Below, one piece after another: positions 5,041-49,175 of a stretch of 64,000 nt of DNA. The notes beneath the pieces were generated by a model. The model was not told the origin of the DNA. It worked only from the letters and a program-made list of their open reading frames with translations, and ran no database searches. How positions within the stretch are numbered: position 1 is the stretch's first letter; each line of letters begins with the position of its first letter. The DNA comes from Pseudomonas phage HPP-Temi: sequence record PP968062.1, one strand, 5' to 3'. The position numbers and the translations under genes were made by a program.

Positions 5041-6284
5041 TAAACACCGAGTTCGCGTTTGATCTCTTCAAACTTCTTATTCAGTGCTTCCCAGCCCGCG
5101 TCAGCTACATCGCTAACAACGTGTGCGTAGAAGTCTTCACGAACGATATCGTGAGCCTTGATGAAGAAGTTAGCGTAGGTCGCACCGGCTTTGTACTGAT
5201 ACAACGGCAGCTTATGGAAGATGTTAACCATGTCATTCAATGCTTCGATGCCAGTATTGATACTCTCAACAGTGGCTTGTAGCTGTGACATAGGTACAAC
5301 CGATTCTTCGAAATCATAACGACGGATCTTGCGAAGTTCATCTGCACACTGACCGTAGATATCGTAGATGAAACGGTACGAGAAAGCTTCACGCTTCAGC
5401 ATACGCTTAGAATCTTCGAAGAAACGAACACCAACACGTTTGTGCTTGATGTAGAAGTTAGGATCGTCAGATTGAGTATCCATGTTCTTCAGAGTTTCAG
5501 CCAAAGACTTAAGACGCGGACCAACGTGAGAATCGAAACCAAGTTCCAGACGGGAACGGTCCATTACCTGACGTACTTGACGGACTTGTTCAAGTAGCTG
5601 AGCGCCATACTTCTGAGCTTCTTGTTGGAGGTTACGTACACGACGAAGATCGTCATCTACACCAAAAGCCAGAAGACCCAGATCAGAACGAGGGAGCTTA
5701 GGATCAAGCAGAACAACTTCAGCAGCTTCGTAGTACTTACGATCTAGATTACGAGTACCAAGCTTGTTCATGGCTTGCATCGCTTTCCAGTTCGATTCCA
5801 GTTTGACGATCTGGCCGTTGATGCTATCAATACGACCTTGGATGAGTTCATCAGTCATCGTGAGAGACTTAACCCAACGCCAGGCTTTAGCTACGAAGTC
5901 AATCAGAGCACGGAACCATTCCTTGATAGTAGCAAGGATAGCTGCACCGATAGCTTCATTAGAAACTTTCATGTTAAGGCTGGTACGCGTCGGAGTGAAC
6001 AGTGAGTTATAGTTCTCAAGGGAAGGATATACCGGAACATTCAGACCGATCGATTCCATGGAACTATGGATGTTACGAAGAGCAGTGATGTCGTGCGAGG
6101 ATACACCTTCTGCTTTGATAGTAGCACGCAGCTCAGTCAGAGTAGTTAGATGCTCCAGTGCAGCGTGTACTTTGGTTTGCAGTTCGGGGTCAAGTTGAAC
6201 ACCGGCTACGGGTTCTGCTTCAACCTCTCGATCAAGCAGTCGTTGTTCTTCAAAAAGAACATCTTCATGTTCATGCATTTTCAT
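5040..6284 (-). CDS. hypothetical protein
   Basis: ORF track 5040..6314 (GTG); likely ATG start at 6282-6284 (MKMHEHED) with AAAGG SD. Confidence 0.65.
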   Translation of the reverse strand: MKMHEHEDVLFEEQRLLDREVEAEPVAGVQLDPELQTKVHAALEHLTTLTELRATIKAEGVSSHDITALRNIHSSMESIGLNVPVYPSLENYNSLFTPTRTSLNMKVSNEAIGAAILATIKEWFRALIDFVAKAWRWVKSLTMTDELIQGRIDSINGQIVKLESNWKAMQAMNKLGTRNLDRKYYEAAEVVLLDPKLPRSDLGLLAFGVDDDLRRVRNLQQEAQKYGAQLLEQVRQVRQVMDRSRLELGFDSHVGPRLKSLAETLKNMDTQSDDPNFYIKHKRVGVRFFEDSKRMLKREAFSYRFIYDIYGQCADELRKIRRYDFEESVVPMSQLQATVESINTGIEALNDMVNIFHKLPLYQYKAGATYANFFIKAHDIVREDFYAHVVSDVADAGWEALNKKFEEIKRELGV

Positions 6285-6573
6285 TACCTTTAGAATGCTC
6301 GTGGAGCTTGTCACGTAGGAGGTACAACTCTAAACGAATAATCTCCTCAATCGCCTTACGTCGTGCAACAATAACACCACGCTTAGAATCGAAGGCAGTT
6401 TTATTCGCAACAATTGCATCGGTGACTATCCGATGTCCATTACTTAGTTTAGTAATGCAGACAGTCACCAACATTTCAGGGTCAGAGATGATCTTCTCTT
6501 TAACAATTAACGACTTGGCGTATGCTTTAGTAATCCTAGGATGCACCAAATCGTCATGGGTATGGTCGACCAT
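6271..6573 (-). CDS. hypothetical small protein (100 aa)
   Basis: ORF track; short overlap with downstream gene. Confidence 0.45.
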   Translation of the reverse strand: MVDHTHDDLVHPRITKAYAKSLIVKEKIISDPEMLVTVCITKLSNGHRIVTDAIVANKTAFDSKRGVIVARRKAIEEIIRLELYLLRDKLHEHSKGNENA

Positions 6574-6590
6574 GACGACCCCTCCCTGAC

Positions 6591-7031
6591 TTAGCCTTCT
6601 ACTTCAAGCTGGCGCAGAACGTTAGTCACTTCGTTTTGGCACTTGGCGAATTCGTAGCGGCTAGCGAGCATTTGTGCGGTAGCGGTTTCATCGCTGGTCT
6701 GATATTCTTCAGCGGTAACAGATTTCATCGCAGCTTCAACGATAGCCGGATCAGTTACACAGTTAATCAGTTCCAGACGAATACGGACGATCTGCTTGAA
6801 CAGTTCAGTAGCAAGTTTCAGATCGAGAGCAATGTTCTCGTTAACCTGACCAGCTACTTTACGGAGCATGGGCATATGCGCATCGATCAGCTCTTCACAG
6901 GAAAGGCTCGGATCGAGTTGAACATAGAAACCAACAGCGTTAGCTACGAACATAGCGCGAGCTTGACGATCATTGTTGGTCGGAGATTTGATTTCTTTCA
7001 GGATGCGGGCAATTTCAAAACCAGTACGCAT
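6591..7031 (-). CDS. hypothetical protein (146 aa)
   Basis: ORF track; tight spacing in minus-strand gene string. Confidence 0.6.
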   Translation of the reverse strand: MRTGFEIARILKEIKSPTNNDRQARAMFVANAVGFYVQLDPSLSCEELIDAHMPMLRKVAGQVNENIALDLKLATELFKQIVRIRLELINCVTDPAIVEAAMKSVTAEEYQTSDETATAQMLASRYEFAKCQNEVTNVLRQLEVEG

Positions 7032-7046
7032 TTCGGTCTACCTTGT

Positions 7047-8294
7047 TTATTGAGTTAAGCGGAAAGCTTGTAAGAACAAATCATTGTTCAGCAATGTCTC
7101 TAGATTCTCTTCTGCTTGCTTGTGATGTAACTCACGCCGGCGTGCAGGGCGGAAGAATTCTAAGACAGAATCAAACATACCACGATTGTTCGAGAAATCT
7201 TTAATGATGTCATCAATAGCTTTTATGTCGTCACTCATAGCAGCTTTATCTTTAGCTGTATCAGAACGGCGAAGCTGAGCGATAAGATCACGACGCACTT
7301 TCATAATGCGTTCACGGGGATCATCGTAACGGGCAGAGAAGTTAAACTCGTCTACTTCGGCATTTATTATGATCACAAGCATAACTAGTGGGGAGAACCA
7401 CAACATAGCTAGTGCGTGGATAATCATCATGAAGTAACCGGTTTCCCGATGTTCGAGTCCGTAGTACTTATCAAACTTATGCAAACATGTGGCGAGGTCA
7501 CGACTATAACCCAAACGACTGGCAAACATATCTGCCATTTGTTCTTCACGACGCATTGCCGTAACGGGGTTATTCATCAGGTGGTGTCGTGGGGCTTTCT
7601 TATAAGCAGAAAGGATGGCACGACGCACATTGCCAACATCTGAACGATCGTTGATATAGGCTTCGTATTCTTCTGGCTTCAGGTTATCTTTGAGCCATTT
7701 GTCGGTGAAGATCTCCAACTTGAATACGTTCTGTTTCTTACCTTGCAGGATCTCGATCCCGTCAGTCAGGTAATAGTTGAGCCAAACGTAATCACCCATG
7801 TACATGAAGACGTTGAAGGTGTGACCGATTTCGTGAATCAGTGCAGCTGCTACTTCACGAATTGTAAAGCCCAGTTTCTCACTAATGAATCCCAGGGAGA
7901 TATAGACTTTAAATTTGAGTTCGTCAGCAAGACCACCTTTAACATGGACGTTCTTTACATCGATAACTGTTTCCAGTTTACGAGGGTCGTTATAGCTGTT
8001 CTCAGCGCGAAGCCGTTTGTGAGCATTATACCAAGTACCGCTGTGACCCAAGGCCATCATTTCAATACTGACGCCAGCATCCAGACCAGTATCGCCAGAA
8101 ATGGTGAAGTCGTAATTGATACCAGTTTCAGCTTTCAGTTCCGCTGTAAAATCTGTAAGGAGTTTGACCGGAATGATTTTGTCTTTTGCGTATGCTTCCC
8201 GAATCAGAGTAATGTATTTCTCCGTGATCGGGCCAATGTTGGACTTAGCTCCAACAGCTAGCATCTCTTGAGAGATAGTGAATCGGTTATACAT
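7047..8294 (-). CDS. zinc metallopeptidase (HExxH, membrane-anchored; M48/M56-like)
   Basis: AALIHEIGHTFN motif (HExxH) plus hydrophobic segment YFMMIIHALAMLWFSPLVMLVIII. Confidence 0.65.
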   Translation of the reverse strand: MYNRFTISQEMLAVGAKSNIGPITEKYITLIREAYAKDKIIPVKLLTDFTAELKAETGINYDFTISGDTGLDAGVSIEMMALGHSGTWYNAHKRLRAENSYNDPRKLETVIDVKNVHVKGGLADELKFKVYISLGFISEKLGFTIREVAAALIHEIGHTFNVFMYMGDYVWLNYYLTDGIEILQGKKQNVFKLEIFTDKWLKDNLKPEEYEAYINDRSDVGNVRRAILSAYKKAPRHHLMNNPVTAMRREEQMADMFASRLGYSRDLATCLHKFDKYYGLEHRETGYFMMIIHALAMLWFSPLVMLVIIINAEVDEFNFSARYDDPRERIMKVRRDLIAQLRRSDTAKDKAAMSDDIKAIDDIIKDFSNNRGMFDSVLEFFRPARRRELHHKQAEENLETLLNNDLFLQAFRLTQ

Positions 8295-8400: not shown

Positions 8401-10113
8401 ATGAGTGATGATATTTCTTTTAGTAAAGAAGATGTAGTTGGTATCGAAGCTAAACATATTACTTACGTTACCGACCGTAACCATCGCAAGCATGACTTGC
8501 ACGTTGTTAAAGAGGTCATCCATCTTAAGGACAAGCGTCGGATTCCTCGTCTCCGTTTTATTGAGGATTATGAACGTCCTTGGTGGTTGGACCCTGAGGC
8601 CAACAAGAAAGAAGGGCAACGTTCTTACACTGAGAAGAAAGACTACGAATATGAGAAGAAACTCCTCAAACGTAAGTCTACTCAAATTAACATGCCGCAC
8701 GCTATCGCTAAAGCTCTTGGTGATTACAGCATGGGTCCTAACCCACGGATGCGTCAACTGAGTCGTAGTCCTTATCTGTACGGTTCTGACGTTAGCTCTG
8801 TTTGCTATCTGAAGAACGACTATCGAATGGCTGCTCCTGATCTGATCTCTCGTAACACTGTCGCTGGTGGCGACATTGAGACCAACGTTTACGAAGATGG
8901 TAAAGATGGTGAGATCATCTGCATGTCCGTATCGTTTAAAGATAAAGTCTATCTGGCTTATCTGAAACGTTGGGTAAGTGACCTCAAAGATCCTATACAA
9001 GAAACCTTTGATGAACTGGAACGTATCCCTGAGTTGGTTGCTCTTCGTAAGGGACGTAATCTGAACATCGAGATCGAAGTAGTTGATCAACCGGTTCACA
9101 TCGTAATTAACTGCATAAAGCGTCTCCACAAATGGAAGCCTGACTTCTTCTCCTTCTGGAACATCAGCTTCGACATGAGTCGAATCCTGAAAACTCTGGA
9201 AGACGCTGGTGTTGATCCGGCGGTTGTATTTAGTGATCCGTCTGTACCGGCTAACTACAAGTACTTCCACTTCCGTCAAGATCAAGCGATGACCACTACG
9301 GCATCGGGTGTAACCAAGTCTAAAGGTCCAGAAGACCAATGGCACTGGATTACTTGCCCTGCATCTTTCCAACCGATCGATGCGATGTCTACTTACCGTG
9401 TAACTCGTCTGGCTAAAGGTAAGGAACCGTCTTACGCGCTTGATTACATTCTGAAGAAAGAACTCAACGTCGATGAAGATGCTGAGATTCTGGGTGAAGG
9501 TGATCTGGTTAAGTTCCAGAAAGGTCTCGACAAACTGTTAGCTGAACGTCCGGGTAGTTATCCTTATCTGTTCGTTAACTACAGCGGTAAAGAAGATGAC
9601 TGGACTCCGGTTGAACACTTCACTTGGGGTGACACTGTAAACCTGGGTAACCATGTTCGTTACACCATGAACTTTGGTAAGCTTAAGTTCCCTGAAACTG
9701 ATCACCTCGGAGGGATCGAATGGCACATTGAGATGCAGAAGAACCACAAGGTTCGTTATGGTCTTTACAACATCATCGACTCCATTCGTCTGGAGCAACT
9801 CGATGAGAAGATCAATGACCTTGCCAGTTCTATTACTCTGTTCTCGAAGTCTTCCGACTATAAGAACTTTAGCTCTAACCCGAAGCGTCTTTGTGACGAC
9901 ATGCACTTCTGGTATCTGAACCGTCCTGAGCCGTGTGTCATTGGTACTAGCTCTGACCAAATGGTTCACGAGCTCGATCAGTACGTAGTGGGTCACGATA
10001 GCTGGATTGTTACACTGCCTTCTTACATGGCTGGTCCGAACGGATTGAAGTGTGTTAAGGACTTACCTGATTACAAGACTTTGATCTTTAGCCACGTAGC
10101 TGATTTGGATTAA
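8401..10113 (+). CDS. family B DNA polymerase, N-terminal 3'-5' exonuclease part (split polymerase)
   Basis: Exo I GGDIETN, Exo II FWNISFDMSRIL, Exo III SYALDYILKKEL with typical spacing; SD AAAGGAA upstream of ATG. Confidence 0.65.
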   Translation: MSDDISFSKEDVVGIEAKHITYVTDRNHRKHDLHVVKEVIHLKDKRRIPRLRFIEDYERPWWLDPEANKKEGQRSYTEKKDYEYEKKLLKRKSTQINMPHAIAKALGDYSMGPNPRMRQLSRSPYLYGSDVSSVCYLKNDYRMAAPDLISRNTVAGGDIETNVYEDGKDGEIICMSVSFKDKVYLAYLKRWVSDLKDPIQETFDELERIPELVALRKGRNLNIEIEVVDQPVHIVINCIKRLHKWKPDFFSFWNISFDMSRILKTLEDAGVDPAVVFSDPSVPANYKYFHFRQDQAMTTTASGVTKSKGPEDQWHWITCPASFQPIDAMSTYRVTRLAKGKEPSYALDYILKKELNVDEDAEILGEGDLVKFQKGLDKLLAERPGSYPYLFVNYSGKEDDWTPVEHFTWGDTVNLGNHVRYTMNFGKLKFPETDHLGGIEWHIEMQKNHKVRYGLYNIIDSIRLEQLDEKINDLASSITLFSKSSDYKNFSSNPKRLCDDMHFWYLNRPEPCVIGTSSDQMVHELDQYVVGHDSWIVTLPSYMAGPNGLKCVKDLPDYKTLIFSHVADLD

Positions 10114-10162
10114 ATATACGTAAAGATGATATTTCCTGTTATTGTATACAGGAGATATTAAC

Positions 10163-11497
10163 ATGATAAATAATGACATGCGTTACTTACCTCACTCTGG
10201 TCGACGGTATATGGTCAGTCGTTGTGGTAAGGTGTATGATACGAGTGGTATTGAGATAAAGCCTAATGGTGGTAACGTCAGATTAACTTGGTTAAATGGC
10301 GACGATAGTTATTCGGTGGGCATGTTAGTAATTGTAACATACCAGCCTATATACCTACCTGATCACCTTTGGATAAAAATCGAACCTCTTCATCTAGATT
10401 GTGACCCTAACAATAATCATGTCGATAATTTGCGGTATCGTTTCGTAAATGGTAAATTGGAGTATGAAGCAATTCCAGGCTTCTACTATATTCCACATTA
10501 CACCAAATATGTAATCGATATTTACGGAAATATGCTCACTGCTGAAAATGGCAGAGATAAGACTTGGGGTTATGTAAAGTCAGATCTAGAACGTAATTCG
10601 AAAGGTGGATACAGATTTACACGAGTCGTTAATGAACCCGGTGTTAATTCTGTGCTACTTAGACATAGAGCGTTGTGTTTTGTGTTTAAACCAGTTGAGC
10701 GTGCAAGTGATTATGACTTGCTCGTAAACCACATTGATGGCGTACCAGGTAACGATAACTTAGACAATTTGGAATGGGCGACGTATGCAGAGAATAACAA
10801 GCATGCTCACGCCAACGGTCTAAGTGGTGGTAAAGCTAAAGGTGTACTGATGCGTAATATTGAAACCGGTGAACTGAGTAAATTCGCAACCACTAAAGAG
10901 GCGGCGAAAAGTCTTGGGCATGGTTCCAATGCACAAATACGACATCGCTTAAGACATGGTCAAACCATCCACTATCTCGATAATTTACAATTCAAATGGG
11001 ATGATGGTACCGACTGGCTGGATGTGGATATAACCACACCTGCTATTGAATGTAAAATCGGTACAATGATGGCTTCTCGAAATGTCTTAACTGGTGAAGT
11101 CAGAACTTTCGGATCATTTGAAGAAGGTGAGAAATTAACTGGTATTGACAAACAGACGATTGCAATTCATATTCGTGATAATCAGATTGTTCCTTTCCAA
11201 GGTTTTAATTTTGGTTGGTACAAAGAAGGCATGGAATGGCCTATTCATTCTGATATTAACATGAAGGCCTACAAGAAATATCCGACACGTACGCCTGACC
11301 CAATTATTGTGGAAGACATGATACTTGGGGATAAAGTAATCGTGGAAAGTAGGAATGAATTAGCTACTCTTCTTAAGATCAGTCCCAGTTATGCTACTCA
11401 ACTTGTGTCAAACGCAATGATTTATCAGGATAGGTACAAAATGACCTATCATCGTTTACGTGACAACATTTTAGTCCCATCAAGTTGGAATACTTGA
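10163..11497 (+). CDS. HNH homing endonuclease (HNH + AP2/NUMOD-like DNA-binding region)
   Basis: Motif NHIDGVPGNDNLDNLEWATYAENNKHA (H-N-H); SD AGGAGAT before ATG 10163; markedly AT-rich compared with flanks. Confidence 0.8.
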   Translation: MINNDMRYLPHSGRRYMVSRCGKVYDTSGIEIKPNGGNVRLTWLNGDDSYSVGMLVIVTYQPIYLPDHLWIKIEPLHLDCDPNNNHVDNLRYRFVNGKLEYEAIPGFYYIPHYTKYVIDIYGNMLTAENGRDKTWGYVKSDLERNSKGGYRFTRVVNEPGVNSVLLRHRALCFVFKPVERASDYDLLVNHIDGVPGNDNLDNLEWATYAENNKHAHANGLSGGKAKGVLMRNIETGELSKFATTKEAAKSLGHGSNAQIRHRLRHGQTIHYLDNLQFKWDDGTDWLDVDITTPAIECKIGTMMASRNVLTGEVRTFGSFEEGEKLTGIDKQTIAIHIRDNQIVPFQGFNFGWYKEGMEWPIHSDINMKAYKKYPTRTPDPIIVEDMILGDKVIVESRNELATLLKISPSYATQLVSNAMIYQDRYKMTYHRLRDNILVPSSWNT

Positions 11498-11835
11498 TGC
11501 AAACTTCTTTAATTGCCGGGGAAATCCTTAGAGACATGTACACCAAATCCATGTAGTGATACATGGACGGCCAGATTAACTACCTGGGTATGGTAAAAGA
11601 GACATGTATTGGGTGATCCGCAGCGAAGCTTCTCTCTGAGAAGAACGTTCAACGACTATCGAAACCACTGCGCAAGCAGACAAGGGAGTAGAGTAGGATC
11701 AAGTGATCCGAAATGGGAAGCATCCGATCCTCGCAAGAGAAGGATGGTGATATAGTCTCCACATCCAGGGAAAGCCTGGAGCAGCACGTTATAGTGCGGA
11801 TAGAGCGTAACGAACTCTATCGAAGATACTGGATT
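11498..11835 (+). ncRNA. group I self-splicing intron catalytic core (P3-P9)
   Basis: P element AATTGCCGGGGAAATCC 11511-11527; Q GATCCGCAGCG 11615-11625; R GTTCAACGACTATCG 11646-11660; S GATGGTGATATAGTCTCC 11744-11760; P7 GACTA/TAGTC; P9 hairpin CCAGGGAAAGCCTGG 11765-11779; close matches to Tetrahymena/T4 consensus elements. Confidence 0.8.
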
Positions 11836-12063
11836 GTCAGTACTTATCCGAACGTTAGCCAGATTCTCAACATTGCTCGGGAAACAACTGTCATGGAATT
11901 CTCCATGATGAAAGATATCTCTGAGCATCATCGTCGAGAAGTAGGGGTGAACTTAACTGGTGGTCGTGTCAACGCTATTGAGATCTGCCAGAAGATCATG
12001 AAAGCTCCGAAGTTGGATGAGATGTTGAAGCTCTACATGGAGAAGAAGGCTAACTCCCCAAAG
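11797..12063 (+). CDS. putative downstream exon or displaced 3' gene segment (frame of ORF 11713..12066)
   Basis: Only open frame after intron core; candidate 3' splice sites after G at 11781/11796/11832; start coordinate uncertain. Confidence 0.3.
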
Positions 12064-12094
12064 TAACATATCGATGGAAACGCCGCGGAGGATA

Positions 12095-12143: not shown

Positions 12144-12431
12144 ATGCCAGATGGTCGTACAATCGAGATGCACTATCAATGTGACATCAAAGGTTATGAA
12201 CCAGGTGGTACTAATTGGAAGCTTGGTAAAGGTAAACCTCCATTAGCTTCTATAAACTCCTGGGAGGCCTATTACGGGCTTTGGGAGACTTGGGCTAAGG
12301 CAAACCCTGACTTGATGAAAGAACTTCGTATAGGAGCCGATAAGAACGAAGGATATCTTTCTGATGTCTTTGCATCGACTAGTATTTCACAGGCTCGTGC
12401 TCTAGCAGAACTTTTGAACAAAGGCTATTGA
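12144..12431 (+). CDS. hypothetical small protein (95 aa)
   Basis: ORF track; weak SD; ends at hairpin 12441-12459. Confidence 0.35.
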   Translation: MPDGRTIEMHYQCDIKGYEPGGTNWKLGKGKPPLASINSWEAYYGLWETWAKANPDLMKELRIGADKNEGYLSDVFASTSISQARALAELLNKGY

Positions 12432-37793: not shown

Positions 37794-39260
37794 TTAAGCT
37801 GCTTTCGCCAACCATTCCTCCAAAGACGGAAGATAGTCTTCGTGAGCATAGTTGATGATCGTTTCTACAACCGGACCTTGGAGTTCCAGGTTACCAGAGA
37901 TCTCGTGTGGATCATCCGGACTCAGTACCCAAGTATGCGGTGCGATTCGTTCAGTTGCATCAGCCAGATAGTTATCGGGCATCAGCGTCAAGTTCAGCTG
38001 GTCACCATCGAAGTCGGCGTTAGGTGCTTTCAGGCACAGTACCGACATGCTGATGGAGTTATCTCGAATGTCATTCTTAATAACGGTGATGAAGAACTGC
38101 TGTGTCGAACCACGTTGCAGAGTCGGGTTACGGTGGAACACACACGGAAGACCTTTGTACTTCGATTCTGCAATGATCTCTTTAAACAGCTGATCCAGGA
38201 CTTCGTTGTACTTCAGGACGTTCTCGTAGATGAACGAGTTCGCTTGGCGAGTCGTCATACGGAACTTGCGTTTCAGTTTGTTGATCAGGTGATACTTCAA
38301 CAACTGACAGCCGACGCCCCACGGAATGTGAAGTTCATCGTAATCATGCGGGTCACTAATGGAAGTAATTACCGCACGAGCAGTCAGGTTAAGACGACCA
38401 CCCAATACGTGCCTACGAACCAGACCAGGCTTTTGCGCGATCCGTTGTTTGTCGTAGTTCTCATGGAAGATAGCCAGAAGCTTCAGTGCACGAGCTACAC
38501 GGTTTTGTACAGTGATTGGTTTCAGCGGGATTGCCGAACTGCCGATACTACTAATAGTCAGTACCGCATCGATTGCTGCGCCGATCGGCTTATCGATGTA
38601 AACACCCGAGGTCGTAGACTCTACAACGAAACAGAGTTTAGTTGGGATCGGAATGTTCTTCGGGAACAGGTGTTCTTTGTTTTGGTTAACGAATGCAGCC
38701 ATCTCACCTTTGTTGGTGTTGATGATACTGCTATCGAGCAAGAACTGGAAGATCGTATCGAAGTTCTGAACGAAGTTGTTCAATCCACGTGGGAACTGGC
38801 GAGCCAGCAACTTGTCGAGTTTCCGTTTGGTTTCTTTCGAACTGATCGTATCGTAATCAAACTGATACTGCGTGTTGGTCAGATACTCCAGGAAGTCGAA
38901 CTCTTTCATCGACATGTATCCTGAAAGCATAATCCACAACTCGGGACTCACCAGACGATCCACCCCTTCCGGTGCCCGAATCCACATCGAAGGAACGATG
39001 GGTCGGTTGCTCGTGCTTACTACTGGTGTACCACAGTTATCACAGATTACCCCGAGCTTGTATGCTTCCGTGATATGTTCACAGTCACACGATGCCGAGT
39101 TCTCGATCGCATCTGCATCCTGATAATGGGAGAACAGATAACGTTGGAATTCCTCCTTTTGTTCAGCATTGCTGGTATTGAAGTCGTTTGCGAATACTAC
39201 TTTACCTCTTTGGTTAGCGAGCATTTCGTCATGATTGACAACCTGAGCATATAGACCCAT
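37794..39260 (-). CDS. multisubunit RNAP beta' subunit, N-terminal segment
   Basis: Catalytic motif CLKAPNADFDGDQLNLTLMP (NADFDGD) near C-terminus; Zn-finger-like Cys cluster near N-terminus. Confidence 0.85.
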   Translation of the reverse strand: MGLYAQVVNHDEMLANQRGKVVFANDFNTSNAEQKEEFQRYLFSHYQDADAIENSASCDCEHITEAYKLGVICDNCGTPVVSTSNRPIVPSMWIRAPEGVDRLVSPELWIMLSGYMSMKEFDFLEYLTNTQYQFDYDTISSKETKRKLDKLLARQFPRGLNNFVQNFDTIFQFLLDSSIINTNKGEMAAFVNQNKEHLFPKNIPIPTKLCFVVESTTSGVYIDKPIGAAIDAVLTISSIGSSAIPLKPITVQNRVARALKLLAIFHENYDKQRIAQKPGLVRRHVLGGRLNLTARAVITSISDPHDYDELHIPWGVGCQLLKYHLINKLKRKFRMTTRQANSFIYENVLKYNEVLDQLFKEIIAESKYKGLPCVFHRNPTLQRGSTQQFFITVIKNDIRDNSISMSVLCLKAPNADFDGDQLNLTLMPDNYLADATERIAPHTWVLSPDDPHEISGNLELQGPVVETIINYAHEDYLPSLEEWLAKAA

Positions 39261-44572: not shown

Positions 44573-44995
44573 TTACTTAGAATACTCAAGCCACTTGTCA
44601 TAGAGTTCTTTATCTTTCTCTCTGACAGCTTCTGCCCGAAGACTCTTCAATTCAGCACGAACAACCTTCTGTTTCACGAACTTATAACCGCTAACCCAAA
44701 TACTGTCTTTGTCTGGAATGTTTTCGCATTCAGCGAATACGTTGTCAAACAAGCGAATGTATTTTTGTTTGCGAAGACTATTGCGAACAACCTGCGATTT
44801 CAGTAACGGATACTTGGTTACCAGTTGATCCCATGCTACTTTGTTGATGGATATACTGATGTGCGATATGTCGATACCGCGGTTAACGCTAACTGCCAAC
44901 GCGGCCATACCTGTTACAGTGAAGTCGTTTGCAGAAAGATTGTAATGGCTTTTAACTCGACGTAATGGACCATGAATATGCGACGTATGATACAT
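44573..44995 (-). CDS. hypothetical protein (140 aa)
   Basis: ORF track; GGAG SD; preceded on minus strand by hairpin+TTTATGTCG. Confidence 0.6.
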   Translation of the reverse strand: MYHTSHIHGPLRRVKSHYNLSANDFTVTGMAALAVSVNRGIDISHISISINKVAWDQLVTKYPLLKSQVVRNSLRKQKYIRLFDNVFAECENIPDKDSIWVSGYKFVKQKVVRAELKSLRAEAVREKDKELYDKWLEYSK

Positions 44996-46436: not shown

Positions 46437-48617
46437 TTAGTAGAAGTCGGAGATCAAACGGGTGTTACCTTTATCGATCAAGAAGATACCCAGGGATTCA
46501 AAAATCAAGTAGAACACACCCATGGTGTTGGAGATGATCGTGCGAACATCAGCTACACGGGTAATCTCATCGGGAATACCGCGGTTTTCCACAACTGTCA
46601 TCGGAACGTGGAAGTTGGCGATACCAGTCTTGTTGTTTTCCATTGCCCAACGTTTAAGGCGCATGGCAAGACCTTTATCTTCGATAGTCTCAACCCACTC
46701 ATTAAAGCGAGTCTTGTTATCGGTTGTTACAGAGATCTTGACGAAGCTGTACGGAGGTTCTTCGATTTCACCAAACGACGGGCTGCAAACTTCTTTCCAG
46801 AAAGTGTGCTTAGCATAGGTGGCGTTATCTTCAGACTTGTACGCATCGATCTTCTTGCACTTACCGGTGGTGAGGTATTCAGCTTTACCAGAACGAACCG
46901 AAGCGATGATGTCACGTTCCAGGTCTGCTACTTCTTTCAGCATTGCGGGAAGATCAAGTGGCTCTTCTGCTTTAATGGACTTAATGATGTCATCCATCAT
47001 CCGCTTAGCAGTCTTGTTGATCTTCGGTGGAACTTTAGAATCTCGCAGACCTACACCTTTAACTTCCATACGAGCTTTAGCGAACATTACGCCCTCCTGC
47101 GCGTCCTGAGACGCGTAATAGTGTTTTGAACGTGTGGTCAAGGAAAGTACAGCGAAGTAGTATTCGTTCTTCATAGCCAACAAACGGAGCTTCTCTTTCG
47201 ATACGCCCATGTTAGCCGACTGAATGGCGAGGATGTGTGCAACCACACAGGACACCAGGAACACCAATGCAAACACCAGTCGCTTAGCTTCAGCGGTAAA
47301 GGTGATCTTACCAAAGAACTCTTCTACCCAGTACTGCATGGTAAACATCGTGGAGTCAGTGTCGGAGATGACAGCTGCGCGGCGGTAAGCAGTTGGGAAA
47401 GCATGAATGCTAGAAGGTACGTTCTTGGTCAGAAGGAGAGCATCAATCAAACGCTTGTATTTCCACAGCGTATCAGAGATGTTCTTACCTGTTGCATAAA
47501 TCGTGTCGAATACTTCAGGGGATTCTTTGCTCAGCTTATCATAGTTCCGACCTTTAACCAGATCGAAGCAAATGAAGTTAGCCAGGAGTTGCAAGTCACC
47601 ATCGTAAGTGTTGTAAACTTCTTTGGTAACCTTCTGTTCGTCAGTACCTAGTTGAGCAAGCTCTGTCAGGAAACTACGAATCAAAACTTTGTTGTGTTTG
47701 TAGACATGATACAGATCGCCAACATACATAACAGCCGCACGCTGCAATGGAGTGAAACCAGTAACCAACATCCGAATCTGTTCAGTGTAGTCACGATTCT
47801 GCCAGTAGTGCGCTGTGGAATACAGAACCATTTCAATTACTTCATCCGGAGTCGGGTAATGCATATTGAAATGATCAATGCAATCTTTCAACTTCTTCAT
47901 GTCGGTGTTGTTAGCAATCGACAGAAGGTTGGCTTTGGTAATCTCCGGACTATAGTAGTGGCGATTACCAGTGATGAACTTCTCGTTATTCGCGTTAGCA
48001 TACGAGGTTGCAGTACGACAAGTAGACGTCAAGCTGGAGTGAGTCGACTTGTAATACAGAATCGTTGCCGCGCTTACGGTTGCTCCACTGTAGGAGTTAT
48101 TGTTAATTTTGAAGTTTTCTTGTTCGCCTTTGCGAACCTGTGCGAGTTCAGCTGCTTCCGGGGTACCTTCACCCTCAAGACGCATTTGTTCTTTCTTAAC
48201 ACGTTTACGGTTTGCTACACCTTCAGCGATATACTGAGAGTGGGTAGACTGGCGCTGAGATTCCGGAAGATACACGGTCATACTCGGCGACAGCAAAAGA
48301 TTCTGTTTTTCTACACGGCCTAAGAAACCCATGAAGGTGGTTTCTTTCAAACTACGATCGCCTTGAGGATTCTTGTCTAATATCAAGGTCTTTGGATTGT
48401 TCAGGGCAAACTGACCCTGAGGGCGAGACTGTTCCTTCACAAACTCCAAGCAGGTTTCAAATGGATCCCCCGTCATCGCGGAGATGTACAGAGCTTGATC
48501 GTTAAGATAACCTTCGATGATGTTCAGGTCACGGGTGTAATCTTCAACCGGCAACAAGAACGGGTTAGGAGTGCTGATCTGGTCCATATTTCCTCTCTTA
48601 AAATTTAATCTTTTCAA
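46437..48617 (-). CDS. family B DNA polymerase, C-terminal polymerase part (split polymerase)
   Basis: Motif B-like KINNNSYSG and motif C AVISDTDSTMF (DTDS); 726 aa. Confidence 0.65.
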   Translation of the reverse strand: MKRLNFKRGNMDQISTPNPFLLPVEDYTRDLNIIEGYLNDQALYISAMTGDPFETCLEFVKEQSRPQGQFALNNPKTLILDKNPQGDRSLKETTFMGFLGRVEKQNLLLSPSMTVYLPESQRQSTHSQYIAEGVANRKRVKKEQMRLEGEGTPEAAELAQVRKGEQENFKINNNSYSGATVSAATILYYKSTHSSLTSTCRTATSYANANNEKFITGNRHYYSPEITKANLLSIANNTDMKKLKDCIDHFNMHYPTPDEVIEMVLYSTAHYWQNRDYTEQIRMLVTGFTPLQRAAVMYVGDLYHVYKHNKVLIRSFLTELAQLGTDEQKVTKEVYNTYDGDLQLLANFICFDLVKGRNYDKLSKESPEVFDTIYATGKNISDTLWKYKRLIDALLLTKNVPSSIHAFPTAYRRAAVISDTDSTMFTMQYWVEEFFGKITFTAEAKRLVFALVFLVSCVVAHILAIQSANMGVSKEKLRLLAMKNEYYFAVLSLTTRSKHYYASQDAQEGVMFAKARMEVKGVGLRDSKVPPKINKTAKRMMDDIIKSIKAEEPLDLPAMLKEVADLERDIIASVRSGKAEYLTTGKCKKIDAYKSEDNATYAKHTFWKEVCSPSFGEIEEPPYSFVKISVTTDNKTRFNEWVETIEDKGLAMRLKRWAMENNKTGIANFHVPMTVVENRGIPDEITRVADVRTIISNTMGVFYLIFESLGIFLIDKGNTRLISDFY

Positions 48618-48682
48618 GAGATGGCTACGCTAAAACGGGAAAAAAATTAGGACACCCAATGGATGTCCAAAATTGAGCGGTA

Positions 48683-48714
48683 GCACATCAAATTACTTTC
48701 ACATATTGATGTGC
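48683..48714 (-). promoter_or_regulatory. perfect 9-bp inverted repeat GCACATCAA-14nt-TTGATGTGC in 5' leader of polymerase gene
   Basis: Lies 66-97 nt upstream of pol ATG; possible operator/translational control hairpin. Confidence 0.4.
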
Positions 48715-48734
48715 CTTAGGGTAAAACTTCGCAA

Positions 48735-48767
48735 CGACATAATGCCCTCCCGAAGGAGGGCGATATG
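48735..48767 (-). terminator. hairpin GCCCTCC-cgaa-GGAGGGC; minus strand reads hairpin-ATTATGTCGTTG
   Basis: 7-bp stem 3' of 48768..49175. Confidence 0.7.
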
Positions 48768-49175
48768 TTATTCCAAGACTACCGAGTCCGGAACTTCGTT
48801 GTTCATCTTGCAAGCATCAACAATGCGTTGCAGGCGACGTTCATCGATGTTCTGGAATACGAGGGTAGCTTTCTTGCCATTGTTAATGACAACGCTACCT
48901 TCACGAATCCAAGGGATACCGAGGTACTGATGCTGACCACCTTCAAACTCAACACGGATGTAGCTGTATTGGGAAGGGTCATTCGGTGTACCCGCTGGGA
49001 GAGTCGGGTAAACGTTTTGGTGAGCAGCGATCAGATCGAAGCCCAGGATACGTACAAGGTTTGCGTCAAGGAAAGCGGCCAGGGTTACGTTCTTGAAGTT
49101 GTTACCGTACTGTGCGGACGGGTGAACTTCAAAACTGATCTTCTGGCCAATTGCTACGTCGCGAATGGATGGCAT
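48768..49175 (-). CDS. hypothetical protein (135 aa)
   Basis: ORF track. Confidence 0.6.
   Translation of the reverse strand: MPSIRDVAIGQKISFEVHPSAQYGNNFKNVTLAAFLDANLVRILGFDLIAAHQNVYPTLPAGTPNDPSQYSYIRVEFEGGQHQYLGIPWIREGSVVINNGKKATLVFQNIDERRLQRIVDACKMNNEVPDSVVLE

Follow-up and report, generated by a model that had tools for sequence, protein, structure and literature searches.

The stretch of Pseudomonas phage HPP-Temi DNA analyzed here (64,000 nucleotides (nt) of record PP968062.1; hereafter, the window) in all likelihood encodes a two-subunit family B DNA polymerase (PolB) in three DNA segments, with the gene for the N-terminal subunit (N-subunit) interrupted within catalytic motif A by a self-splicing group I intron that, in turn, carries a gene for a homing endonuclease of the HNH type. 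The division of this polymerase between two genes is already known for phiKZ-like phages, where it was described as a 'split subunit DNA polymerase' of phiKZ (PMC5105663), and is not new here. The new observation is the intron in the N-subunit gene of the known split polymerase, an element belonging to a known class of mobile group I introns.

The two halves of the polymerase are found in convergent open reading frames (ORFs) on opposite strands, 36.3 kb apart, namely, 8401-10113 on the plus strand (570 amino acids (aa)) and 46437-48617 on the minus strand (726 aa, counted from a TTG codon). The earlier note on this DNA had taken the first of these ORFs for a complete gene and had found motif A not clearly present in either of the two. 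Neither ORF as drawn does contain a complete DxxSxYP, but the motif is intact once a second, downstream exon is joined to the first: the plus-strand ORF is exon 1 only, and its 'stop' codon, 10111-10113, is the start of the intron.

The boundaries of the intron follow from the alignment with the intron-less orthologue of phage HHBS36_1, a 647-aa protein that reads ...SHVADLD-IVSTYPNVSQ.... The window ceases to align with HHBS36_1 after T 10110, where the TAA that forms the apparent stop of the 570-aa ORF follows, and homology picks up at 11833 (ATT GTC AGT ACT TAT CCG, that is, IVSTYP), continuing to the stop codon at 12066. Joined, 8401-10110 and 11833-12066 form an in-frame coding sequence of 1,944 nt for a 647-aa product that has the same length as the HHBS36_1 orthologue and is 94% identical to it. 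Across the junction, motif A reads D-L-D/I-V-S-T-Y-P-N, so that the intron lies directly after the codon of the catalytic aspartate D570; the predicted sequence of the spliced exon junction is GATTTGGAT followed by ATTGTCAGT, and the predicted junction-spanning peptide of the spliced subunit is TLIFSHVADLDIVSTYPNVSQILNIAR. The 570-aa ORF matches PHROG 3011 ('DNA polymerase') with an E value of 3e-200 over profile positions 3-496 of 576, and joining the exons extends the coverage to positions 3-570 and raises the score from 668 to 783 bits. Exon 2, which lacks a start codon and a ribosome-binding site of its own, differs from its HHBS36_1 counterpart by 21 synonymous and 2 non-synonymous codons; judging from the sequence comparison, it is under purifying selection.

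On the evidence of these alignments, motif A is present, cut at the DNA level by the intron and not lost, and it seems to be missing because the intron splits it between exons 1 and 2. It could be argued instead that the two ORFs as delimited make up the whole polymerase and that motif A was lost or replaced in a divergent lineage, given that the clade is indeed very divergent, with no sequence-level match in the PDB for either protein alone, and that the complete motif is absent from both ORFs. We consider this highly improbable. Motif A is internal (...ADLDIVSTYP..., conserved as ...ADLDIVSTYPNVSQ) in 79 of the 120 N-subunit homologues that matched best in the database search, and its residues D568, D570, Y575, and P576 are invariant in an alignment of 52 N-half homologues; the missing half lies 1.7 kb downstream and is in frame once the sequence matching a group I intron is removed; and the intron-less orthologue is contiguous, with an equal total length. 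A segment near the start of the C-half ORF, 'NDQALYIS', was considered as a degenerate motif A and dropped, the real motif A spanning the splice junction.

The ribozyme core of the 1,722-nt intron matches the full group I intron model of Rfam (RF00028, positions 1-253; 59.2 bits against a gathering score of 50, E = 7e-14) and is the sole Rfam match in the whole window. The splice sites obey the group I rule, with U as the last base of the exon and G as the last base of the intron, which ends ...CUGG. In the P1 pairing, the end of exon 1, GGAU, and the first intron U pair with the guide AGUCC (11473-11477), with a U-G wobble at the 5' splice site. The P1 hairpin also appears in the minimum-energy fold of the intron that occupies the same site in phage PhiPA3, and locus L005, where the exon ends in CGAU and the guide is GUCG, is a compensatory P1 variant. 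The consensus fold of six related introns comprises 39 pairs, with compensatory changes in 22 of the 39. The 3' 360 nt of the window intron are 82.6% identical to the ORF-less PhiPA3 intron, and comparison of the two places the HNH gene in the P1 loop. A 5-bp candidate for the P10 pairing, GACAA (11462-11466) with UUGUC (11834-11838), is not claimed, its segment being absent from the PhiPA3 intron.

The HNH ORF lies wholly within the intron (10111-11832), with its 3' end overlapping the start of the ribozyme core, and its ATG at 10163 is preceded, eight bases upstream, by AGGAG (10150-10154). The predicted protein matches Pfam HNH_3 (3.8e-7, 30.1 bits; cut-off 24.8) and the DNA-binding module NUMOD1, the latter with 22.0 bits, slightly below the cut-off of 22.8. 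The catalytic motif is intact (NHIDG...NLDNLEW...NNKHA; NHIDGVPGNDNLDNLEW...NNKHA), and the GC content of the gene is 39.5% compared to 46.4% for the window. The nearest phage relative is the protein encoded in an insert of Escherichia phage Goslar (31% identity), and a search of IMG/VR with the HNH protein returned only distant relatives, with at most 32% identity. An exact-match search of IMG/VR with the exon 1/intron junction gave no match; hence, this exact combination of intron and HNH gene is not present in the collections searched. The identity to PhiPA3 gp210 is 26%; gp210 is the HNH endonuclease of a group I intron in the virion RNA polymerase gene, for which competitive interference has been shown (Birkholz et al. 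2024, PMC11620839).

Intron carriage in the N-subunit gene varies among the relatives of HPP-Temi. The PhiPA3 intron, at the identical site, is 344 nt long, lacks an ORF, and scores 71.7 bits with RF00028 (L001 5540-5883, NC_028999.1 74542-74885). PhiPA3 gp085, annotated as a 608-aa 'DNA polymerase', ends at the same GAT/TAA as the window ORF, and together with exon 2 (L001 5884-6120, 78 codons) would yield a spliced product of 686 aa; the intron and exon 2 (L001 5540-6120, NC_028999.1 ~74305-74885) are both unannotated in the record. PA1C, PS119XW, HHBS36_1, BRkr, phiHQ, and phiLBG22 each give one uninterrupted match over 99% of exon 1, and the absence of the intron was directly verified for HHBS36_1 only. 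Motif A is lacking in 41 of the 120 best N-subunit homologues, most of which end at one of three intron sites that fall within 35 codons: site a, after ...GHDSWI; site b, after ...HVAD; and site c, after ...HVADLD. In each complete intron-bearing locus (that is, leaving out L005), the downstream exons restore motif A and the protein. The 5' exon ends are nearly all GGAU, matching the shared guide GUCC, the exceptions being L005 and the second intron of L003 (both CGAU).

In L003, the ORF-less intron is located at ...WI/ITLP (5698-6230) and the one with the NUMOD1 ORF at ...HVCD/LD (6328-8064), so that, with two introns in the N-subunit gene, the polymerase is encoded in four DNA pieces. The Goslar N-subunit gene is broken after ...FVAD and resumes in exon 2 as LDISSSYPNG (L008 1367-4832, record ~79690-83155), and the insert holds a NUMOD1/HNH-like ORF. 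The features of the window and the intron-bearing relatives are listed in Table 1.

Table 1 Features of the split polymerase genes and the intron in the window, with intron sites in related phages
Feature	Position	Strand	Description
Exon 1, N-subunit gene	8401-10110	+	N-terminal domain, 3'-5' exonuclease, first half of motif A; last base T 10110
Exo I, DIE	8872-8880	+	Coordinates checked
Exo II, NISFD	9160-9174	+	Coordinates checked
Exo III, YNIID	9766-9780	+	Coordinates checked
Motif A, first half, D568-L-D570	10102-10110	+	End of exon 1
Group I intron	10111-11832	+	1,722 nt; starts with TAA, ends with G 11832; boundaries by alignment to HHBS36_1
HNH homing endonuclease gene (predicted)	10163-11497	+	444 aa from ATG 10163; ORF open from TTG 10142
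Ribozyme core	11446-11781	+	Rfam RF00028 match
Exon 2, N-subunit gene	11833-12066	+	77 codons and stop; second half of motif A, then palm helices
Motif A, second half, IVSTYPN	11833-11853	+	Start of exon 2
Polymerase C-terminal subunit gene	46437-48587	-	716 aa from ATG 48587 (likely start); motifs B and C, fingers, rest of palm, thumb
Motif C, SDTDS	47352-47366	-	Coordinates checked
Motif B, KINNNSYSG	48084-48110	-	Coordinates checked
L003 (metagenomic chimallivirus)	sites a and b		Two introns, one ORF-less and one with NUMOD1 ORF; 53.7 and 64.9 bits
L004 (metagenomic)	site b		Intron with HNH_3 ORF; 86.9 bits
L005	site c		Intron begins, contig ends inside intron
L006 (metagenomic)	site a		Intron with HNH_3 ORF; 75.8 bits
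L008 (Escherichia phage Goslar)	site b		~1.76-kb insert with group I-like core; 44.7 bits, E = 1.2e-9

Polymerase motifs are frequent targets of inteins and of free-standing HNH or GIY-YIG genes, and the intervening sequence could accordingly be thought of as an intein or as a free-standing endonuclease cassette between two genes, all the more as, in L004, a second, apparently free-standing gene of the homing endonuclease type, a GIY-YIG/I-TevI-like ORF (L004 6892-7695), lies immediately downstream of exon 2. The probability of this explanation appears negligible. An in-frame stop codon stands at the very beginning of the insert, and the HNH ORF is initiated after it, from its own ribosome-binding site, so that the element is not an intein; moreover, the RNA-level match to group I introns covers the 3' part of the insert, and the PhiPA3 version contains no ORF at all.

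A more serious competitor is the possibility that the insert is a decayed, non-splicing element, with the N-subunit made as two chains held together non-covalently, one of 570 aa and a small C-terminal one, as with nrdA and gene 43 of T4-like phages, where insertion-split genes with reassembling products are known (PMC2988022, PMC3061061). The ATG at 11713 opens an ORF that continues into exon 2, and predicted introns at other loci of phiKZ showed no splicing in long-read transcriptomes (PMC10914365), so that intron prediction alone is no proof in this group of phages. We nevertheless find this alternative improbable. The ribozyme core scores above the Rfam threshold and is retained, with compensatory changes, across six loci, and the U/G rule is obeyed at all junctions. 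The break would fall within motif A, on a beta-strand, one residue past the catalytic aspartate, which makes a poor non-covalent joint. Translation starting at ATG 11713, which lies inside the ribozyme core and lacks a Shine-Dalgarno sequence, would introduce 40 unrelated residues, and the possibility that exon 2 is translated independently was rejected. Finally, PhiPA3 retains a 344-nt ribozyme without any ORF, which suggests selection for splicing.

Besides the unspliced phiKZ introns, several observations weigh against a functional, spreading intron. We sought a convincing P10 pairing for the window intron and found none; the score of the core is just 9 bits over the Rfam threshold, and that of the Goslar core is below the gathering score of 50. 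Splicing, assembly of the heterodimer, and the activity and target of the endonuclease are all inferred from the sequences. The divergence around the insertion site is not decisive either. In the 24 nt surrounding this site, there are 9 differences between the window and HHBS36_1, all of them synonymous and including an AGT/TCG serine switch, and only 2 between the window and PhiPA3, although HHBS36_1 is much closer elsewhere. This cluster of substitutions is modest (binomial P = 0.006, with 1.3% of the 24-nt windows of the gene being as divergent) and would fit co-conversion, constraints on P1, and escape of the target site equally well.

Close relatives present three allele states, namely, intron with endonuclease gene (the window), intron only (PhiPA3), and intron-less (the PA1C group), and the intron is apparently a mobile element. 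The combination of GGAU exon ends with the GUCC guide at at least three invaded sites might mean that, besides homing by the endonuclease, the ribozyme itself guides the intron from site to site (reverse splicing). The predicted intron-less target site around the insertion point is GCTGACCTTGAC followed by ATCGTTTCGACT, and the PA1C/HHBS36_1-type target sequence is CACGTAGCTGACCTTGACATCGTTTCGACTTATCCG. By analogy with gp210, the HNH protein may disable the DNA polymerase gene of co-infecting intron-less PA1C-like phages, and possibly also that of phiKZ, if the target sequence is shared. Thinking of the motif A region as a contested battleground, with ribozyme-guided hopping alongside homing and with the HNH protein as a gp210-like weapon, is a tentative extension that we regard as rather unlikely.

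The introns appear to extend beyond the polymerase gene. A core stretch of ~110-145 nt in the window (~11640-11785) has counterparts of 80-82% identity in numerous other Pseudomonas phages, among them at a site under the terminase large subunit gene of the KIL phages (KIL1, NC_030934.1 20425-20537) and in unannotated regions of the phiKZ-like phages PA7, OMKO1, and fnug. In PS119XW, an unannotated ORF-less group I intron (75.7 bits) is located right after the catalytic motif NADFDGD in an RNA polymerase beta'-like gene (L016 2326-2631, MN103543.1 ~44591-44896), which the record splits into two 'hypothetical proteins', QEM41784 and QEM41785. The same RNA polymerase gene is uninterrupted in the window (37794-39260, minus strand; 488 aa, ...NADFDGDQLN...; 99.5-100% aa identity). 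Thus, with PS119XW carrying its intron in the RNA polymerase gene and apparently none in the DNA polymerase gene, and the window the reverse, intron carriage is reciprocal between these close relatives. The matches to the core stretch suggest that related group I introns form a family distributed across several essential genes.

The assignment of both genes to a phiKZ-like PolB, which the earlier note had proposed, is borne out by profile searches, by fold, and by the literature, and neither ORF was assigned to an unrelated family. The C-half is covered end to end (profile positions 3-705 of 705) by Pfam PF20286, 'Divergent Family B DNA polymerase' (E = 0, 1041.5 bits; cut-off 25.7), and also matches PHROG 2927, whereas the N-half matches no Pfam family and is identified by PHROG 3011. 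The phiKZ PolBs have been described as a divergent clade that is a sister group to the T4-like PolB (PMC7544198, PMC4889955, PMC7824862), and the PhiPA3 record gives phiKZ gp082 as the homologue of the N-half. The motifs read from the sequence also hold up. The Exo I, II, and III motifs are located in the plus-strand ORF, with D158, E160, N254, Y456, and D460 invariant in the 52 aligned N-half homologues and F257 and D258 nearly so; motifs B and C are located in the minus-strand ORF, with the catalytic residues invariant or nearly invariant in 55 aligned C-half homologues. The minus-strand ORF itself exists as delimited, but the C-terminal subunit (C-subunit) likely starts not at TTG 48617, to which the frame is open, but at ATG 48587, which is preceded by GAGAGGA and results in a protein of 716 aa, equal in length to the closest orthologues (most of the others have 708-733 aa).

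Upstream of the C-subunit gene, there are two GC-rich hairpins (48640-48765, minus strand), CCCTCCTTCGGGAGGG and GGACATCCATTGGGTGTCC, the latter followed by a T-run, which resemble intrinsic terminators at the end of the preceding gene (48768-49175, minus strand); with that gene so closed, the C-subunit gene probably has its own promoter.

AlphaFold2 models of the single chains, built on the alignments of homologues, have a mean predicted local distance difference test score of 83 for the N-subunit and 84 for the C-subunit. In Foldseek searches of the PDB, the top match of both models is gp43 of RB69/T4, with E ~5e-12 over ~530 columns for the N-subunit and E ~1e-4, at a probability of 1.0, for the C-subunit; the template modeling score of the C-half is low (0.23), that is, the domain arrangement of gp43 is not reproduced. 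Single-sequence searches of PDB sequences with either ORF returned nothing meaningful, and in profile searches of the PDB, the RB69 match of the N-half was only marginal (E = 0.016) and the C-half had no match, which is why the folds had to be compared. The chain break falls after motif A and the helices that follow it and before motif B, and in our reading of the AlphaFold2 secondary structure, both finger helices belong to the C-subunit. The low-confidence segments of the models (520-588 in the N-subunit; 167-186 and 397-408 in the C-subunit) coincide with the parts of the palm that surround motifs A, B, and C, which fits a palm that would be completed only in the two-chain complex. The two chains would form one active site because the metal-binding aspartates sit on separate chains, in motif A and motif C, respectively, with D568/D570 of the N-subunit expected beside D409/D411 of the C-subunit in a shared palm sheet. 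Given this division of motifs and the low-confidence palm segments, we take the enzyme to be, most plausibly, an obligate heterodimer.

The layout of the two genes is conserved. In PA1C, PS119XW, HHBS36_1, and PhiPA3, the N-half and C-half genes are likewise convergent, with a spacing of 35-41 kb. At the nucleotide level, the two window genes are ~85% identical to those of the Pseudomonas jumbo phages PA1C, PS119XW, HHBS36_1, BRkr, phiHQ, and phiLBG22 and ~78% identical to those of PhiPA3 (gp085 and gp047); the proteins are 94-96% identical to the PA1C-group orthologues and 69-84% identical to the PhiPA3 orthologues. No relative closer than the PA1C group and PhiPA3 was found for both genes in the phage collection searched. 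After exon 2, the window contains a 95-aa ORF (12144-12431, plus strand) that by eye resembles PhiPA3 gp084, with a shared central PDGRTIE…GKGKPPL and a similar C-terminal tail, …YLSDVFASTxISQARALxxLLNxGY. The gene order around the N-subunit gene thus appears to be conserved despite the intron.

Under the scenario we propose, gene 1, on the plus strand, would code for the N-terminal domain together with the proofreading exonuclease and motif A and would be broken by the 1.7-kb intron after the D570 codon; self-splicing of the pre-mRNA would join 8401-10110 to 11833-12066, yielding the 647-aa subunit with the intact motif A, DLDIVSTYPN. Gene 2, on the minus strand, 34 kb from gene 1, would code for the 716-aa subunit, to which the fingers, the thumb, and the remaining palm belong along with motifs B and C, and the two chains would assemble into one active site. 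The HNH endonuclease would cut or nick intron-less alleles of the N-subunit gene in co-infecting relatives, and through this cleavage the intron would be propagated by homing, possibly to the detriment of the competitor phage.

This scenario accounts for the apparently missing catalytic motif without invoking an unusual enzyme. It also implies that the N-subunit has been mis-annotated as a truncated protein, for example, PhiPA3 gp085 at 608 aa compared to 686 aa after splicing, as well as in many metagenomic gene calls. Following the system for which interference competition was demonstrated (PMC11620839), this would be the second candidate intron-endonuclease system in nucleus-forming phages, one that targets the active site of the replicase, and the open-access literature we searched contains no description of a chimallivirus DNA polymerase gene with an intron. 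The close relatives cover all the textbook states of the homing cycle and are therefore convenient for co-infection experiments, so that the practical value of these observations lies in annotation as well as in competition experiments.

As a split polymerase, the window enzyme has the same two genes, convergent layout, and motif content as its counterparts in phiKZ-like phages (Chimalliviridae; PhiPA3 gp085 and gp047), but its N-half gene additionally harbors a group I intron containing an HNH gene. Three other natural splits of PolB have been described, namely, at the finger tip in T4-like gp43A/B, in the palm in Methanothermobacter PolB, and between the N-terminal part and the palm in RM378 (PMC3061061), and the genes of a split PolB can be distant, lying 85 kb apart in M. 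thermautotrophicus (PMC3061061, PMC2988022). As proposed for the window enzyme, the gp43A/B of the T4-like phages 25, 44RR, and 133, Methanothermobacter PolB, and the polymerase of Rhodothermus phage RM378 consist of two reassembling polypeptides, but the break point in the window, in the interval between motif A and motif B, differs from all three.

The closest parallel to the intron is the gp210 intron of PhiPA3, which comes from the same phage family, likewise combines a group I ribozyme with an HNH gene, and lies right after catalytic aspartate codons in an essential polymerase gene. The ribozyme cores of the two introns are related, and core-only matches occur across phiKZ-like phages. 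The targets differ, that of gp210 being the RNA polymerase gene and that of the window HNH protein, by prediction, the DNA polymerase N-subunit gene; competitive interference has been shown for gp210 and is conjectured by analogy for the window HNH protein.

Group I introns in phage DNA polymerase genes are further represented by those of SPO1/SP82 (with I-HmuI), Bastille (I-BasI), and Pf-WMP3 (I-PfoP3I), with HNH or nicking endonucleases (cited in PMC11620839 and PMC12908238), and by the ORF-less intron of LUZ24, the splicing of which was shown (PMC10914365). All of them resemble the window intron in representing the same class of element, a self-splicing intron that, with or without an HNH gene, is inserted in a conserved catalytic region of a replicase gene. 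The polymerases of SPO1/SP82, Bastille, Pf-WMP3, and LUZ24 are single-chain enzymes of family A. The window intron differs from these introns in that its host gene encodes one subunit of a split family B enzyme and in that the insertion site is motif A.

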